DNA from: Candidatus Heimdallarchaeota archaeon | GTDB lineage: Archaea > Asgardarchaeota > Heimdallarchaeia > JABLTI01 | Direction of reading: 5' to 3' | Assembly (NCBI GenBank): GCA_019056785.1 | Contig: DXJV01000102.1 | Coordinates: 1 to 25,189 of the forward strand | DNA length: 25,189 nucleotides | Shown here: positions 13,892 through 23,498 of the stretch, in pieces | How the letters are laid out: each line of letters begins with the position of its first letter | Numbering within the stretch: position 1 is the first letter of the stretch | Translations under genes and position numbers: made by a program | Notes under the pieces: generated by a model | Database searches by the model: none | Seen by the model: only the letters and a program-made list of their open reading frames with translations | What the model was told of the DNA's origin: nothing

Positions 13892-15199
13892 CTAAACCAT
13901 TTTGTTAGGGCCAAGCAGTTCATCTAGATCCCCAAGAATATTCATAGCTAATTCTTGAATGACCTCCCGAATGCTTTTATTGGCTTCATATGCTTTCTTA
14001 GTAATTTCCCCGGCTTTATCATAACCAATAATCGGTGTTAATCTGGTAACAATCATCAGCATTTGCTCGAGATCTTTTTCTATTTTCTCTTTATTTACTT
14101 TAAGGGCCTTTAAGCAATAATGATTAAATGACTAGGTGCCATTTGCTAGCAATGTTATTGACTCAAGTAAATTAACAATCATTACGGGCTTGGCTAAATT
14201 CAGGTCAAGGATACTGCTGGTGCTTTCAGCCAAAGTAATGGCAAGATCGTTACCAATGACTTATTGGCACGCTTGCATTAAAGCTTCTGCTTGAATCGGA
14301 TTGATCTTTCCAGGCATTATTGATGACCCGGGTTCGTTTTGTGGGAGGAGAAGTTCTCCCAGCCTGGCTCTGGGGCCACTACCTATTAATCATATGTTAT
14401 TTGTCATTTTGAGCAAAGTAAGGGCAAGCAATTTCAAGACGCTGCTCAAATAAGCAAGTGAATTGTGTGAAGCTATTCCTTCTGCTTTCACAGAGTTAGT
14501 CTTAAAGGGGAAACCAGTTAACTCTCGAAGATTAGCGAGTGCATAGTCTGTGTATTGAGAGGAAGCATTTAAACCAGTTCCGAAAATCGTCCCGCCAAGC
14601 AGCAATAAATAAAGCTCTTGCAAAACGCTCTCAAGTCTTTGTTTTGTTTTCATTAATTGTTCTTTATAGACTGCAAACTCCATTTCCAGAGGGATTGGCA
14701 CAGCATCTTGTAAATGTGTTCAACCAACTTTAATGACCTCTTTGAATTCAGTGATTTTTTTATAAGTTTGTTCCATCAGAGTTATTACCGGAAGAAGTTG
14801 TTTGGTAATTTGTGAGATACAAGCAAGATGCATTGCTGTTGGAATCACATCATTGCTCGATTAGCCAACACCTCATTCATATTCATATTTATCTGTGTAC
14901 CGGACCGCGTTTGAAAAACATCAATAGGGAATTGCTCTAGAAACCTTCCCTTAAGGAGAATCTCATCTAAAACTTGGTTGATCGCTTTTGTTTTTGTGGG
15001 GGATCAATTGCAGTTTTTCATTGGCTTGTAAACAAGATTTCTTCACCGTTGCAAGTGCAAATAAAAACTCTCATGGGAAGGTTTTACCACTAATTTTGAA
15101 AAGTTCCAGTGTCCGCTGCGTATTTATTCCCCAGTAAACATTCTCCGGAATAAGCATTTCTCCAAGAAGGTCTTTTTCTTTTCGCATTTTCTGTGTCAT
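13892..15199 (-). pseudogene. fumC: Class II fumarate hydratase pseudogene (FumC/AspA family)
   Basis: Manual translation: MTQKMRKEKDLLGEM...YWGINTQR...[24 protein letters not shown] / [11 protein letters not shown]...G*THLQDA...[13 protein letters not shown]...IGYDKA. Stops at 15071, 14720, 14390, 14261 and 14132; frameshift near 14985-15003; deletion at 14852-14862. Confidence 0.92.
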
Positions 15200-15784
15200 T
15201 GTTTTTTCTTCTCGATTTTCCAGACACTATCAATTGTGGTGCCTGGCTGAACACCCTTAGGGCAAACAGCATTACAAGCGAAGACCTTTTCGCAAGCTGG
15301 AACGCCATCTTCCTTCAACACACGTTCATAAATCGCTTGTCGGTGCTTTTCCTTCGAATTCAGTGTCAATGAATGGTTGAATTTCACGATAAAAGCGCCA
15401 GAATGGCTCCCTATCGACAACAAGGTCTTTTAGCACAACCATATTTGGTAATGGCTCAATTAGAATCTCTGTTTCTGGGTCCCAATCAGTTATCTCACCG
15501 AAAACCAACTCTGGAACGCGGGGATGTGTTTTAACGGTTATTGGTTCAACTTGTGTTTTGCACGCTAATTGTGGGAATTTATTGATTGTCAATCCACAAG
15601 AGCCACAAATAGCACCACGGCAAGAATATCTGAAAGCAAGCAATGAATCATAATAATCCTGAATATAGAATAAGGCTTCTAAAATCGTAATTCCAGGTTT
15701 CAAGGGAACTTTGTATCGTTCATAATGGCGTTCGGAATCAGTCTCTTCTTTTCGAAAAATTACAAAGGTTTTCTCTTTGATCAT
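15196..15784 (-). pseudogene. sdhB: Succinate dehydrogenase / fumarate reductase Fe-S subunit pseudogene
   Basis: 2Fe-2S motif SCRGAICGSC...LAC and PLP....KDLVVD are intact. The C-terminal CEKVFACNAVCPKG is in another frame. The intervening CxxCxxCxxxCP motif is absent, implying an internal deletion near 15340-15375. Confidence 0.9.
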
Positions 15785-16576
15785 TTAATATGCACGCTCC
15801 TTAACTTCAAATACCCCAAGGATTACAGGTTTGGTTTTCATCTTAAGGCCATCTTTTGTTCGCCGGACCAAAGAATGAACCAAAAAACGTTCATCATTTT
15901 TTGTGGGATAATCAGTCCGAAAATGCGCGCCCCGACTTTCTTTCCGCCAGAGAGCAGCAAAAGCTGTCACCTCAGCAATGTTAACCATATTTCGTAACTC
16001 GAGTGCTCGAATAAGTCCGAAGTTAAATTTCCGGTTGGAAGTATCAATATGCATTGCTTTGAAATCCTTTTGCACCCGTTGTAGAATCCTCTAATGCTTG
16101 CTTTAGATGCGCTTCGTCTCGAAAAACGCCGACATTTTGATCTATCGTGTTTTTCATTGCTGTGCGAATTTCTCCAGGGGCTTTTCCCCGTTTTCTTGCC
16201 ACGTATGAAACAAATTCGTAACGTTTTTTAGTGTTCTTTCTTTTGCTTCCTTTACTTCGTTATTTTGAGTGAGTTTTTAAATTCCACGTTTATTTATTAA
16301 TCTCCCTACATAACGCCCAAAGACAACCGTTTCAAGAAGGGAATTTCCCCCAAGGCGGTTTGCTCCATGAACAGATATACAAGATGTTTCACCAATGGCA
16401 CACAACCCTTCTATTGGTGTTTCACCAAACTCCCCCAGGAATTTCGATGCAATGCCACCCATTGAATAGTGCTGTCTTGATTGAACCGGAATTGGTGTTT
16501 CAATAGGATCAACTCCTGCGAAATACATTGCTATTTCACGAATGCCCGGCAACCGCTCGAGAATCCGTCCCAACAC
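15785..16576 (-). pseudogene. sdhA: 5'-truncated succinate dehydrogenase / fumarate reductase flavoprotein pseudogene
   Basis: [55 protein letters not shown] at 16277; frameshifts near 16175 and 16088; the N-terminal FAD-binding half is missing. Confidence 0.92.
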
Positions 16577-19707: not shown

Positions 19708-20397
19708 TTAGAAGAGGGAGAAGATTGTTGTAGTACTGTTTGTAGGTACAGAGAAACCCCCGTAAAGCGCTTTTTGTAGGATAGCGGCAAGGATCAATAA
19801 GACAAGAGAATTAACGATTAGGATTGAGACCAACCCCCCTCGAAGAATGAATGATTTCAACCGGTAACTGGTTTGCTCATCTTCGAGCTCTTCATAAGAA
19901 TATTCATCTTCAAGTTCTCCTTGCTCTTTTTCTTCCTTCTCCTCTTCTAGCTCGTCCTCATCTTCATCATACTCGTATTCGTCTTCTGGTTCTTCGTCTT
20001 CAAGTTCATACTTTGCCTGTGCTCTTCGCCTTGCTTCTCGCTCTCTGATTATCTCCTTATAAACTCTAGCCCTTTTGTTTTCCTGCCGAAGCATTCGATA
20101 AACAAAGATATTCCGATAAAGCATGTCTCCAATAACAACTAAAAAGAAGGTTGTTAAACCAATTAACGCGATTATTGCTGCTGGAAAAATGGTTTCCGGG
20201 AACCCTACCGTCCGATCAATAATAATAACTATTCCAGCTATTAGCCCCGCGGGGATAAACATCATTGGATATCGTATCCACTTAGGAATTCTGACCAGTG
20301 GGGGGCTTGTTTCCTCTTCTGCGAATGCTACTGCAACCGGCTTTTTCCTTGCTTCTCCATTCTCAGAGGAGCTCTGTGGGGATTTTTCTTGGGGCAT
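19708..20397 (-). CDS. Hypothetical three-TM membrane protein with a long basic-then-acidic loop
   Basis: Two hydrophobic segments, an Arg-rich helix, an Asp/Glu/Tyr tract, a third TM, and a short tail with an NST sequon. Confidence 0.75.
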   Translation of the reverse strand: MPQEKSPQSSSENGEARKKPVAVAFAEEETSPPLVRIPKWIRYPMMFIPAGLIAGIVIIIDRTVGFPETIFPAAIIALIGLTTFFLVVIGDMLYRNIFVYRMLRQENKRARVYKEIIREREARRRAQAKYELEDEEPEDEYEYDEDEDELEEEKEEKEQGELEDEYSYEELEDEQTSYRLKSFILRGGLVSILIVNSLVLLILAAILQKALYGGFSVPTNSTTTIFSLF

Positions 20398-20590
20398 TTC
20401 ATCACCGAAATTTAGCTTAATTATTTGCGAGCTTATCTAAAAGAATTTTTAAGGATTTGTTTTTAGATTGGTTAAACACAAATTTTGGAGATGTCCACAA
20501 AACAATCTTTATCAATTAGAAAAAACATCAATATAATGTTTCTAGGCAGTAGCAAGTAACTAACAAGTAAACCTATGGAGTAAAGATTTT

Positions 20591-21607
20591 ATGCCAACAA
20601 TAGGATTTGTCGGTATTGACAATGCTGGTAAAACCACAATCATTGATGTTTTTGCCAAGCAACGATTTGAACACACAATTCCTACAGTTGGCATTAATTT
20701 TGAACAAATTAGCTTTTCCGAGATTGCCCTGGATTTTGACATATTAGATATGGGCGGTCAAAAGAATTTCCGTATGTTGTGGGTTGATTATCTTAATACT
20801 GTAGATATTGTTATTTATGTTATTGATGCGAGTGATCATAAGCGATTAGAAGAAGCCCTTGAAGAATTTCGGCGAATGTTGGTTATCACTGAAGAGAATA
20901 ATGTCCCCATTCTCATTCTTGTAAACAAAATCGACCTTCCCAATACAATGAGCGCGTGGGAGATAGGCCAACGACTGAGCTCTATCGAAGAGCTTGCGGA
21001 CCGCGATTGGAATATTATTGAAACTAGTGCTGTGACTGCTAAAGGACTTGTCGAAATGATAAAATGGGCTTATTCAAAACTGACCAATAATATTTTAGAC
21101 CTTGAGATCAAGTATCGAGAAATTGCTGATAAGAAATACTATCACCCCTGCCCGCTTCTTTTAACTCTCCCTGATGGGAATTATTGTATTAATCACGACA
21201 ATTTTACGCCGGTAAAAGTCGTTCCATTAGATAACCTCTTTACAAATGAGATGGAAGAGACAGAAGAGGTAATAATTGACACCATAGAGGAATTCAAAGA
21301 GCTGGGGAGAATGGTCTGTTTTAATAATATTTTTGTAACTGATAACGATGAGAAAATACGATGTGCAACAGATCAAACAGTCATCGAGGTTGAAGGGACG
21401 ACTGCGAATAAAGATGAATATATTGATTCGTATAATATGATGCACCTGACTGGCGGGCAAATGTGTTCTGAATGCATCTATAAGATCTTGTTTTCTGCCA
21501 TTAAAAGAAAAGTAAAAGCCATTGCCAAAGAGTATAAGAAGGAAGAGCTTGAAGAGATCTATCGATCCGATTTGGAAAAGATTAGTGATACCAGTAAGTG
21601 CAATTAA
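20591..21607 (+). CDS. Arf/Arl/Sar-like small GTPase fused to a ~170-aa Cys-rich C-terminal domain
   Basis: G1 GIDNAGKTT, G2 PTVG, G3 DMGGQ plus R.LW, G4 NKID, G5 TSA; tail with CPLL-x8-C-x2-H, C-x14-C and CSEC. Confidence 0.93.
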   Translation: MPTIGFVGIDNAGKTTIIDVFAKQRFEHTIPTVGINFEQISFSEIALDFDILDMGGQKNFRMLWVDYLNTVDIVIYVIDASDHKRLEEALEEFRRMLVITEENNVPILILVNKIDLPNTMSAWEIGQRLSSIEELADRDWNIIETSAVTAKGLVEMIKWAYSKLTNNILDLEIKYREIADKKYYHPCPLLLTLPDGNYCINHDNFTPVKVVPLDNLFTNEMEETEEVIIDTIEEFKELGRMVCFNNIFVTDNDEKIRCATDQTVIEVEGTTANKDEYIDSYNMMHLTGGQMCSECIYKILFSAIKRKVKAIAKEYKKEELEEIYRSDLEKISDTSKCN

Positions 21608-21608
21608 A

Positions 21609-23498
21609 CTACTCTTTCTTCTGGGCGGTCTTTTGTATTGCTGTGTCATAAGCTTTCTTATAGGCATGAATGATGTTTTCCCAGCTGTAAATCTCTGCGA
21701 TCTTTCGTGCCTTCACTCGAGCGTTTTCTAGCGCTTTTTTCGACAAGCCCAATTGCTTGAGAATGATTGTTGCCAGTTCATTTGCCGCTTCCTGACTTGT
21801 ACGCCCTTTTCGCCGCAGGATATGAATCCCATCTGAATGCGATTCTGATAATTCATTTACTAATAAACCAAAACCTGACAAGTCAGTAGTGATTGCCGGG
21901 ACGCCAAGCGCAAGTGCTTCTAATGGTGTTAAGCCATAAGGTTCATAAGTTGATGGATAGATGCCCATATCACAACCGGCAACAGCATCATAATAGTCTA
22001 ACTCGAGTAATTGATCCATCTCTGAAAGATAAATAGGATAAAAAATCACTTTTACTTTATCTGAAGGTTTATTTGTCAGGTCTAATTTCTTCAATGTTTG
22101 AAAGATAGTGTCACGTTCATTGATAATAAAGGGGCAAATTGGCGGCATTTCTTCTTGAAGTTCGCCCAATGGATTGTCTAATGCTAAAGCATTTATTGCC
22201 GCGATTTCTTCTTCTGTGAAAAATTCTCGTAGTGTTTTTGACTCGATATGTTCCTCAAATTTTTGTGTGGTATAAGAGAGCCACTCATTCATCCTCATTA
22301 GTGGCCGTTCGATCAATGAGCGATGTTTTTTTGCAATCTCAAATGCCTTACTGACTATTGGTTTGATACCTGAGACGGGAGCCGGCACCCAAATAAATGC
22401 CAGCACCTCTCGTGCGGCTTTTTGGCTTTTTAATTGGCGATTGATAATTTCAAGCGCCTCTAAAAAGACATCTATGCCTTTATTATGAAATTCATACCGG
22501 CCTGAAATGTGAATTATCATTAAATCTTCAAACTGTAGCTTATAATAGGGATTAAAATACGCTTCAACAAAGCGTGCTAACTGACCACGAGCATTTAGAT
22601 GTTTTGAGAGCAGATTATCGCTTGTCGCGATAGTATTAAAATTGATGCCATTTGGAATGATAAAATCGGCTCGTTTCCCAAGAATCACCTCTGTTTCGCG
22701 AGCAACAGCCTCAGAAACAGTAATAAGGATATCTGCTTTTTGGGCGCAAAGAACTTCTATCTGATGTGAACCTTCCACATGATATTGATAAGCTTTTTCT
22801 GGGGGAATCGTTTCTTTTCGTTGGAGGAGTTCGTCAAGAATAACATTAATATCTTCATTACTCATAGCAATGTTTCGACCCAATTGGGTTGCATGCGTCA
22901 TAAAAACAGTCCCAACACTCACTTTATGCTTCTTTAAATAGAGCAACCCCGGACCAGAAATCCATTCATGAAAGTGAGCAACGATATTTTTATTTTTAAA
23001 ACGCGGCATTTCCACCAAGTAGGAAATAAGCACACCAGCTGCCCAACCAAAAGCTACCATCGGATCAAAAACTTCGCTCATCCACAGCGAATCAATTTTA
23101 TACCAATCCCAAAGAAACCCTTTAATTTGATCTATTCGCCTTTCAGGCTTTCCTGTGATAAGCGGAACATCTAAGAGATAGGAAGGATCTAGTAGGATAG
23201 TCTCGACTCCTCCGCCTCCCAGCCACAAACCATATTTCGCAGTTATTCCTTCCAACCGCAATTGATTAAAAACCTCTTCGAATTCCCGTGGTGTCTCGAG
23301 TTCCTCAAAATCATTTCGAGCCTTAAAAGCATTGAAAAGACCGATGGCAAGATAATTTCCCGGCCCTAAGAGTTTTTGCATTTCAGGAGCCTTCGAAGCA
23401 ATGACAGTATAAATTCCGCCTATTTTGTTGCCAACTTCATTTGAAATTTCGAAAACAACCTGGCATTTTTGGTGGGGCATAGACTGTTGTTCTGCCAT
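21609..23498 (-). CDS. Glycogen synthase, GT3 family
   Basis: FEISNEVGNKIGGIYTVI, HFHEW, THATQLGR, SGRYEFHNKGID, VKVIFYP.YL, PSTYEPYGLTPLE. Confidence 0.93.
   Translation of the reverse strand: MAEQQSMPHQKCQVVFEISNEVGNKIGGIYTVIASKAPEMQKLLGPGNYLAIGLFNAFKARNDFEELETPREFEEVFNQLRLEGITAKYGLWLGGGGVETILLDPSYLLDVPLITGKPERRIDQIKGFLWDWYKIDSLWMSEVFDPMVAFGWAAGVLISYLVEMPRFKNKNIVAHFHEWISGPGLLYLKKHKVSVGTVFMTHATQLGRNIAMSNEDINVILDELLQRKETIPPEKAYQYHVEGSHQIEVLCAQKADILITVSEAVARETEVILGKRADFIIPNGINFNTIATSDNLLSKHLNARGQLARFVEAYFNPYYKLQFEDLMIIHISGRYEFHNKGIDVFLEALEIINRQLKSQKAAREVLAFIWVPAPVSGIKPIVSKAFEIAKKHRSLIERPLMRMNEWLSYTTQKFEEHIESKTLREFFTEEEIAAINALALDNPLGELQEEMPPICPFIINERDTIFQTLKKLDLTNKPSDKVKVIFYPIYLSEMDQLLELDYYDAVAGCDMGIYPSTYEPYGLTPLEALALGVPAITTDLSGFGLLVNELSESHSDGIHILRRKGRTSQEAANELATIILKQLGLSKKALENARVKARKIAEIYSWENIIHAYKKAYDTAIQKTAQKKE

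Follow-up and report, generated by a model that had tools for sequence, protein, structure and literature searches.

A Heimdallarchaeal Arf-family GTPase joined to an uncharacterised six-cysteine domain

Arf GTPases start eukaryotic membrane budding, and their membrane binding is defined by an N-terminal amphipathic helix that is released on GTP binding. In a 25,189-nucleotide stretch of Candidatus Heimdallarchaeota DNA (contig DXJV01000102.1, assembly GCA_019056785.1; the whole stretch is called the window), one gene encodes an Arf-like G domain that starts without this helix and continues into a cysteine-bearing tail. The question is how a switch of this build could be localised or coupled, and what its tail is. 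Our preferred answer, to which we give about an even chance, is that the Arf switch is localised or coupled via a metal-stabilised C-terminal module that replaces the N-terminal helix. The features on which the analysis turns are collected in Table 1.

Table 1. Features of the GTPase gene and its divergent neighbour in the window
Feature	Position	Strand	Basis
Whole gene ("A family"): Arf-type G domain, Cys6 domain, basic helix and terminal Cys	20591..21607	+	ORF, translation
In-frame TAA, bars N-terminal extension	20561..20563	+	Sequence; 30 nt upstream
Arf-family G domain, residues 1-168, begins straight at beta-1	20591..21094	+	Pfam PF00025, PDB matches
P-loop GIDNAGKT, residues 8-15, Arf-specific Asp at position 3	20612..20635	+	Translation
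Switch II start DMGGQ, residues 53-57, catalytic Gln57 present, Leu52 just before	20747..20761	+	Translation, alignment
G4 motif NKID, residues 112-115	20924..20935	+	N112, K113 and D115 invariant in ortholog alignment
Six-Cys domain, residues ~178-312, ~125-aa core	21122..21526	+	Alignments, AF2 pLDDT 90.2
Polybasic amphipathic helix, residues 296-316, extends last domain helix	21476..21538	+	Moment, charge, conservation
Cys337, penultimate residue, conserved terminal Cys	21599..21601	+	Ortholog C-termini
Divergent neighbour, 229-aa protein with three hydrophobic segments	19708..20397	-	No known family
Shared intergenic region of the divergent pair, 193 bp	20398..20590		Sequence

Gene integrity and the Arf-type G domain

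The reading frame was uninterrupted over 338 codons, giving a 338-aa product inside a stop-to-stop frame of 347 aa; the start codon is the ATG at 20591, with GGAG about 10 nt 5' of it. No ATG, GTG or TTG was found between the upstream TAA and this ATG, and because the TAA is in frame with no alternative start in between, an N-terminal extension of the GTPase is impossible. The product begins with MPTIGFVGIDNAGKT; beta-1 starts from residue 3 and the P-loop from residue 8, so that an N-terminal amphipathic helix would not fit in front of them; the orthologs are alike in this respect.

Two genes wrongly merged, or a chimeric assembly, could give the appearance of such a fusion, and we consider the chance of this artefact negligible. 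The reading frame is continuous across the G domain and the tail, and the same fusion was found in 46 or more clusters from NCBI, JGI, ENA and Logan assemblies. All ten other genomes of the genus (g1) contained the six-Cys (Cys6) domain; nine of them had the fusion gene at E < 1e-60, and only weak tail matches came from the remaining one, G088 (64% complete). Near-identical DNA was also found in at least 11 sequencing runs from several studies. The continuous frame, the independent assemblies and the runs refute the artefact, for which no support was found.

The G domain matched Pfam PF00025 (Arf) over residues 6-161 with 155.9 bits against a cut-off of 22.3 (E 9e-46), and the competing models Ras (55.7 bits) and Gtr1_RagA (37.2 bits) scored lower. 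The best PDB sequence matches were all Arf/Arl, with Arf1 at E 1e-29; 8OUM and 8OUN also matched at E about 1e-26 to 1e-27, and 8OUM is one of the deposited Asgard Arf crystal structures according to the accessible text of PMC11914678. Besides the motifs of Table 1, TIPTVG was found in switch I and TSAV at residues 145-148, and the R.LW motif reads FRMLW. In the accessible text of the same paper, Arfs are defined by Asp at G1 position 3 and Gly at position 3 of DxGGQ; both residues were found in G1 and G3 of this protein, and G1 position 2 is Ile instead of the usual Leu. Taken together, the motifs and matches assign the GTPase to the Arf family, and its probable placement in the ArfR/AArf clade is drawn from similarity.

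Eukaryotic Arf1/Arl gave the best overall sequence match and share the same set of G motifs including the catalytic Gln, whereas the window protein has neither the N-terminal helix nor Gly2 and carries an extra C-terminal domain. In the alignment with Arf1, the Trp of wDvGGq is replaced by Leu52 and the Phe of switch-I GFN by Ile35, and the interswitch is two residues longer, an insertion that is missing in 5 of the 22 aligned orthologs. The preliminary description of this locus had proposed an Arf-family domain with intact G1-G5, Arf-type GGQ and R.LW, a P-loop at residue 8, an in-frame TAA at 20561 excluding an N-terminal extension, Leu in place of the interswitch Trp, and no N-terminal amphipathic helix; the translation, the ORF sequence, the start position, the Arf1 and ortholog alignments and the Pfam and PDB matches bear out all of these points.

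The Asgard ArfR/AArf proteins (HodArfR1, GerdArfR1, Heim12F4_9-5) share with the window protein the Arf-type G domain, the Arf-specific G1 and G3 residues and the Heimdallarchaeial origin. Their characterised members bind membranes via an N-terminal amphipathic helix, as given in the accessible parts of bioRxiv 10.1101/2024.02.28.582541 and PMC11914678; in contrast, the window protein lacks the helix and carries a 170-aa C-terminal module, which is unmentioned in those parts of both papers. The accessible text of the AArf paper notes extra N-terminal domains, such as longin, on Asgard Arfs (PMC11914678). In that survey, again as far as its accessible text goes, an amphipathic helix, N-terminal in position, was present in only 19 of 210 Asgard Arfs (PMC11914678), and other localisation modes are therefore to be expected.

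The genome from which the window comes (2.87 Mb, 82.5% complete) contained 28 Arf-HMM matches. Several of these paralogs have classic N-terminal amphipathic leaders, such as MGFLARLFGK and MSFLKRLFRQR, and both Arf paralogs with the Cys domain have no such leader. The helix-bearing Arf-like paralogs are found at L046 and L049-L052; the MGFLARLFGK paralog has a Gly2 leader resembling that of myristoylated eukaryotic Arfs, and two helix-bearing paralogs (318 and 322 aa) carry uncharacterised C-terminal extensions of their own.

The second Cys-domain paralog, called paralog B (L008:1450-2439, minus strand, contig C60), encodes 330 aa with a Pfam Arf match of 5.6e-41. Its G4 motif is degenerate (HKSD in place of NKxD), the P-loop Asp is degenerate as well (GLSNAGKT), and the protein has 10 Cys without a basic helix or a terminal Cys. 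The gene adjoins a NurA-like gene. In a G-domain tree of own-genome paralogs and orthologs, the two Cys6 fusion families were sisters (support 90/88) nested among helix-bearing paralogs. This placement fits a single fusion event with helix loss, which may have been followed by duplication.

The six-cysteine domain and its distribution

The six domain cysteines are C187 and C199 (HPCPLL-x8-CINH), C243 and C258 (C-x14-C), and C292 and C295 (C-SE-C). All six were invariant in the alignment of 22 orthologs, and across 65 non-redundant domain sequences, where members outside the orthogroup are about 17-32% identical to the window domain, they were the sole invariant columns. P188, N201, D203, Y297 and K298 were nearly invariant in the 65 sequences, and the domain follows the pattern CP-x(10-12)-C[LIV]N-x-D ... 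C-x(13-15)-C ... C-x-x-C-[LI]-Y-K. Judged by these alignments, the Cys pattern goes far beyond what chance would give.

A search with residues 168-338 gave 46 clusters from Heimdall or "Asgard" MAGs, with tail identities of 54-99%; apart from one 241-aa fragment (P0023), these were full-length fusions of about 327-342 aa. When 400 Asgard genomes were searched in six frames with the tail, 127 gave a match. Matches at E < 1e-60 were limited to the genus of the window, the fusion orthogroup is confined to one genus, and the weaker matches were the same core of about 125 aa in different contexts. A single-sequence tail search of 1.84 billion representatives returned nine matches, and profiles were needed: profile searches of 5.8 billion proteins gave at least 280 matches among proteins of near length and 243 among longer proteins. 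The named profile matches were all Asgard "hypothetical protein" entries, Arf fusions aside, and the longer-protein search revealed no informative long fusion of the domain. The tail domain is thus a mobile Asgard-wide domain that is also found without any GTPase.

Several architectures were found. In its own genome the domain is present on the two sister Arf paralogs and, as the C-terminal part, on a multi-pass membrane protein of 381 aa (L009:790-1932, plus strand, contig C54), which has at least six hydrophobic segments and is kept across the genus; by the positive-inside rule, this copy is probably cytoplasmic. Another type in the same genome (L010) has the domain at the N-terminus of proteins of about 320 aa with a helical C-terminal half. 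Genes of this Cys6-helical kind form tandem paralog pairs in most of the Thorarchaeota-like family f31 (for example L021, L023 and L035), in a conserved neighbourhood different from that of the window, and their helical C-terminal domain had no PDB or NCBIfam relative. Stand-alone Cys6 genes of 120-140 aa were found at L025-L027 and L029, and at L030 the domain is followed by a weak thioredoxin/KaiB-like region.

Some further observations were made at these loci. The Thorarchaeotal pairs of about 320-aa proteins are near-universal there (L021, L023, L024, L035, L036, L038-L040), with the conserved gene order RHH, pair, CxxCxxCC, aminotransferase, DUF362 and ThiF. In the Heimdallarchaeial family f3, a stand-alone Cys6 gene lies directly downstream, on the same strand, of a giant coiled-coil protein of 1440-1481 aa (L066:1442-6375, L067:1601-6393), one copy of which gave Pfam TrmB and apolipoprotein-like matches, with none recorded for the other copy. 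In L038, about 7.5 kb separate the Thorarchaeotal pair from a similar protein of 1297 aa.

According to the accessible text of the Asgard survey, Arf-type GTPases were found only in Heimdallarchaeia orders (PMC11914678). Because the Cys6 domain is common in Thorarchaeota, its basic role is not GTPase-specific, a point that counts against the reading we prefer. Alternatively, the tail could have no localisation role and fold back on the G domain as a cis-regulatory element, for example into the pocket that holds the N-terminal helix in Arf-GDP, and act as an intramolecular inhibitor or a built-in GAP/GEF-like element. Such a tail would suit the missing N-terminal helix, the interswitch that is kept and slightly longer, the strict conservation of the fusion and the short linker; however, most Cys6 occurrences are without any GTPase, and the full-length AF2 model made with 22 close orthologs was too poor (pLDDT 51) to show docking and was not used. 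We regard cis-regulation of this kind as improbable.

The architectures also recall the Rag/Gtr GTPases, which consist of a G domain and a C-terminal roadblock dimerisation domain. The two-domain layout, the similar length and the paralog pairs are alike, and Cys6 could be a roadblock equivalent by which the two sister Arf-Cys6 paralogs dimerise, with the Thorarchaeotal tandem pairs pairing up likewise. The co-occurrence of sister paralogs of like architecture across the genus, the adjacent paralog pairs of domain-plus-helical genes in Thorarchaeota and an overall length close to that of Rag GTPases are consistent with such a dimer. On the other hand, the G domain is Arf-type and not Rag-type, the weak structural matches listed included neither a roadblock nor a longin fold, and paralog B has a degenerate G4 and lacks the basic helix and the terminal Cys, so a Rag-like dimer seems unlikely to us.

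Searches for a known family or fold returned no significant match. Neither Pfam nor NCBIfam matched the tail, or the Cys6 part in any architecture, and the domain profile gave no match at E up to 10 against PDB sequences. AF2 on the 65-row alignment gave a model with pLDDT 90.2 and pTM 0.82, in which five short strands, a helix, more short strands and two helices follow one another and the long final helix has the CxxC at its N-terminal end. With this model, Foldseek against PDB gave a best E of 0.75 and BFVD (viral) a best E of 0.16. VIA-align against 48,161 chains reached a best Z of 3.9 (rmsd 3.8, 61 residues aligned), where unmatched models typically reach a best Z of 7-8, and its re-examination of the top Foldseek matches gave a best Z of 3.5. 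The ESM Atlas gave a TM of 0.39 or lower by structure and nothing usable by features. A two-copy Cys6 complex prediction scored 0.00 and, being run without controls, counts neither way.

Two candidates were rejected as CxxC noise: DUF4428, matched by 10 of the 65 members with a best E of 0.011, and Mss4, matched by one member at E 0.058. Among eukaryotic proteins, TRIM23/ARD1 has an Arf-family domain fused to an N-terminal Cys-rich Zn-binding RING/B-box of known folds, and ARL13B has one with a long C-terminal extension, coiled-coil and Pro-rich; these are likewise Arf domains on other modules, and no homology to Cys6 was detected. A literature search by locus tags gave no match. No such domain is mentioned in the accessible parts of Liu et al. 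2020, Tran et al. 2024, the ArfR preprint, the AArf paper or two structural-proteome papers, and a check of the accessible supplements of the ArfR preprint for the accession numbers of the orthologs gave nothing.

From these searches we consider the Cys6 domain to be a new family that extends across the Asgard archaea, its members numbering in the hundreds and having several architectures, and the modelled fold is apparently new. The preliminary description had placed the six spaced Cys (HPCPLL-x8-CINH, C-x14-C, CSEC) and the penultimate Cys of SKCN exactly where we found them, and had called the fusion an architecture that it could not match to a described family; the profile and structure searches of the tail alone, and the accessible text of the Asgard GTPase papers, leave this standing. 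The homolog alignments that it asked for kept all six Cys in the 22 orthologs and the 65 diverse sequences. Its interpretation holds for the Arf family, the absent helix, the conserved Cys and the unmatched tail, but it overlooked that the domain is mobile and that the tail is composite. Its further proposal, that a Zn- or Fe-S-binding sensor or effector module controls or localises the switch, stays a hypothesis.

Taking at least four invariant candidate ligands as the mark of a metal centre, we found six Cys in the 65 sequences. Since the thiols are invariant and the domain is cytosolic, the putative centre would most likely be structural Zn, and an Fe-S or redox centre is the main rival. 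As a sensor, the domain would use its six thiolates to bind an Fe-S cluster or to form a Zn-thiolate switch that responds to redox state; the tail would change conformation when oxidised or when the cluster is lost, and thereby gate the GTPase. The nearly invariant Asn and Asp beside the second of the six invariant Cys are compatible with this, and some members have a weak thioredoxin/KaiB-like region after the domain (E about 1.5e-3), although these matches fall below the cut-off. One Thorarchaeotal locus adjoins DsbD and AhpC/thioredoxin genes and an FeS_assembly_P gene lies about 7 kb away at two others, yet such redox neighbours are not kept across loci, and a canonical Fe-S motif is absent from the domain. 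We consider a sensor of this type possible and do not favour it over a structural Zn site.

The basic helix, the terminal Cys and the neighbouring genes

The tail is composite: the Cys6 domain is followed by a polybasic helix, another helix and, at the end, a conserved Cys. The basic helix has a hydrophobic moment of 0.57-0.63 and a net charge of +5 to +6, and is conserved as LYKILFSA[IL]KRKIKAG in an orthogroup-specific manner; the second helix, which is short, lies between it and the terminal Cys. In 53 of 56 orthologs a Cys occupies the final position of the chain or the one before it, and two further orthologs missed by the pattern also have it. Among about 140 other domain proteins scanned, none had a Cys in the last four residues; two Thorarchaeotal stand-alone Cys6 proteins end in CSM and CSV.

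In Ras, Rho and Rab, the C-terminal anchor consists of a polybasic region and a lipidated Cys. The window protein likewise has a basic stretch and, after it, a conserved Cys at the very end of the chain, but it has no CAAX, CC or CXC, only a lone Cys at -1 or -2 (SKC, SNC, SKCN). Eukaryote-type prenyltransferase, DHHC and ICMT genes were not found above the Pfam cut-off in its own genome, which is 82.5% complete, and PF01239 and PF00432 gave sub-threshold matches only; a lipidation of the terminal Cys would thus be without identified machinery. The terminal Cys is unusual in that Tran et al. did not find such a residue on any small GTPase of the cultured Asgard archaeon MKD1 or on Thor-Rab, as far as the accessible text of that paper goes (PMC10933270).

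The GTPase gene is divergently transcribed from the gene of the 229-aa protein with three hydrophobic segments (3-TM), which matched no known family and contains a loop in which a basic part precedes an extremely acidic one (rich in Glu, Asp and Tyr). The 3-TM gene was found only in genus g1, in 9 of the 10 other genomes and in its own, and adjoins the GTPase gene every time. This synteny is a weak sign of a functional link because the entire neighbourhood, including aldolase, GlmS, glycogen synthase and SHMT, is syntenic within g1.

Two other regions of the window were noted. The glycogen synthase gene (21609-23498, minus strand) is of the eukaryote type (GT3, Pfam Glycogen_syn E 2.6e-102) and convergent with the GTPase gene, ending 1 nt after it; it is missing at that position in L005 and L006. 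At 14390-16576 (minus strand), the fumarase/SdhB/SdhA region contains only short ORFs in different frames (a 152-aa Fer2_3 piece, a 75-aa piece with a CPKG motif, and SdhA-like pieces of 96 and 99 aa) and is intact in L002, L003 and L005; these fragments could be pseudogenes or MAG frameshift errors.

Proposed coupling and its meaning

In the reading that we prefer, a metal-stabilised C-terminal module in place of the N-terminal helix, the G domain with its intact G1-G5 and catalytic Gln is predicted to be a working Arf-family switch, and the six Cys would bind a structural metal, most probably Zn, that stabilises a compact adaptor domain. Cys6 may be a shared protein-protein coupling module, since it is present on multi-TM, sister Arf, helical and stand-alone proteins. 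If Cys6 is such a module, GTP/GDP switching could be read out, or the protein positioned, via the C-terminal part and not via a nucleotide-gated N-terminal helix. The basic helix, perhaps with some help from the terminal Cys, would let the protein bind acidic membranes or the acidic loop of the 3-TM neighbour.

More specific forms can be imagined, namely a homotypic Cys6 tether of Arf GTPases to the multi-pass membrane protein, or a lipid-modified Ras-like C-terminal anchor, and we hold these to be quite unlikely. If true, the homotypic tether would be an Asgard-specific link from receptor to G protein, and the lipid-modified anchor would be the first on an archaeal small GTPase.

By its sequence, the window protein represents a new Arf-family architecture. 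Asgard Arfs are under study as the root of the eukaryotic budding machinery, and in the accessible text of the survey the helix is present in about one in eleven of them (19/210, PMC11914678). Cys6 is a new domain family left blank in current databases, and the basic helix and the terminal Cys recall the anchors at the C-termini of Ras, Rho and Rab. The gene described here could be considered a concrete and conserved alternative to the helix, an Arf switch fused to an uncharacterised Asgard-wide six-Cys domain.
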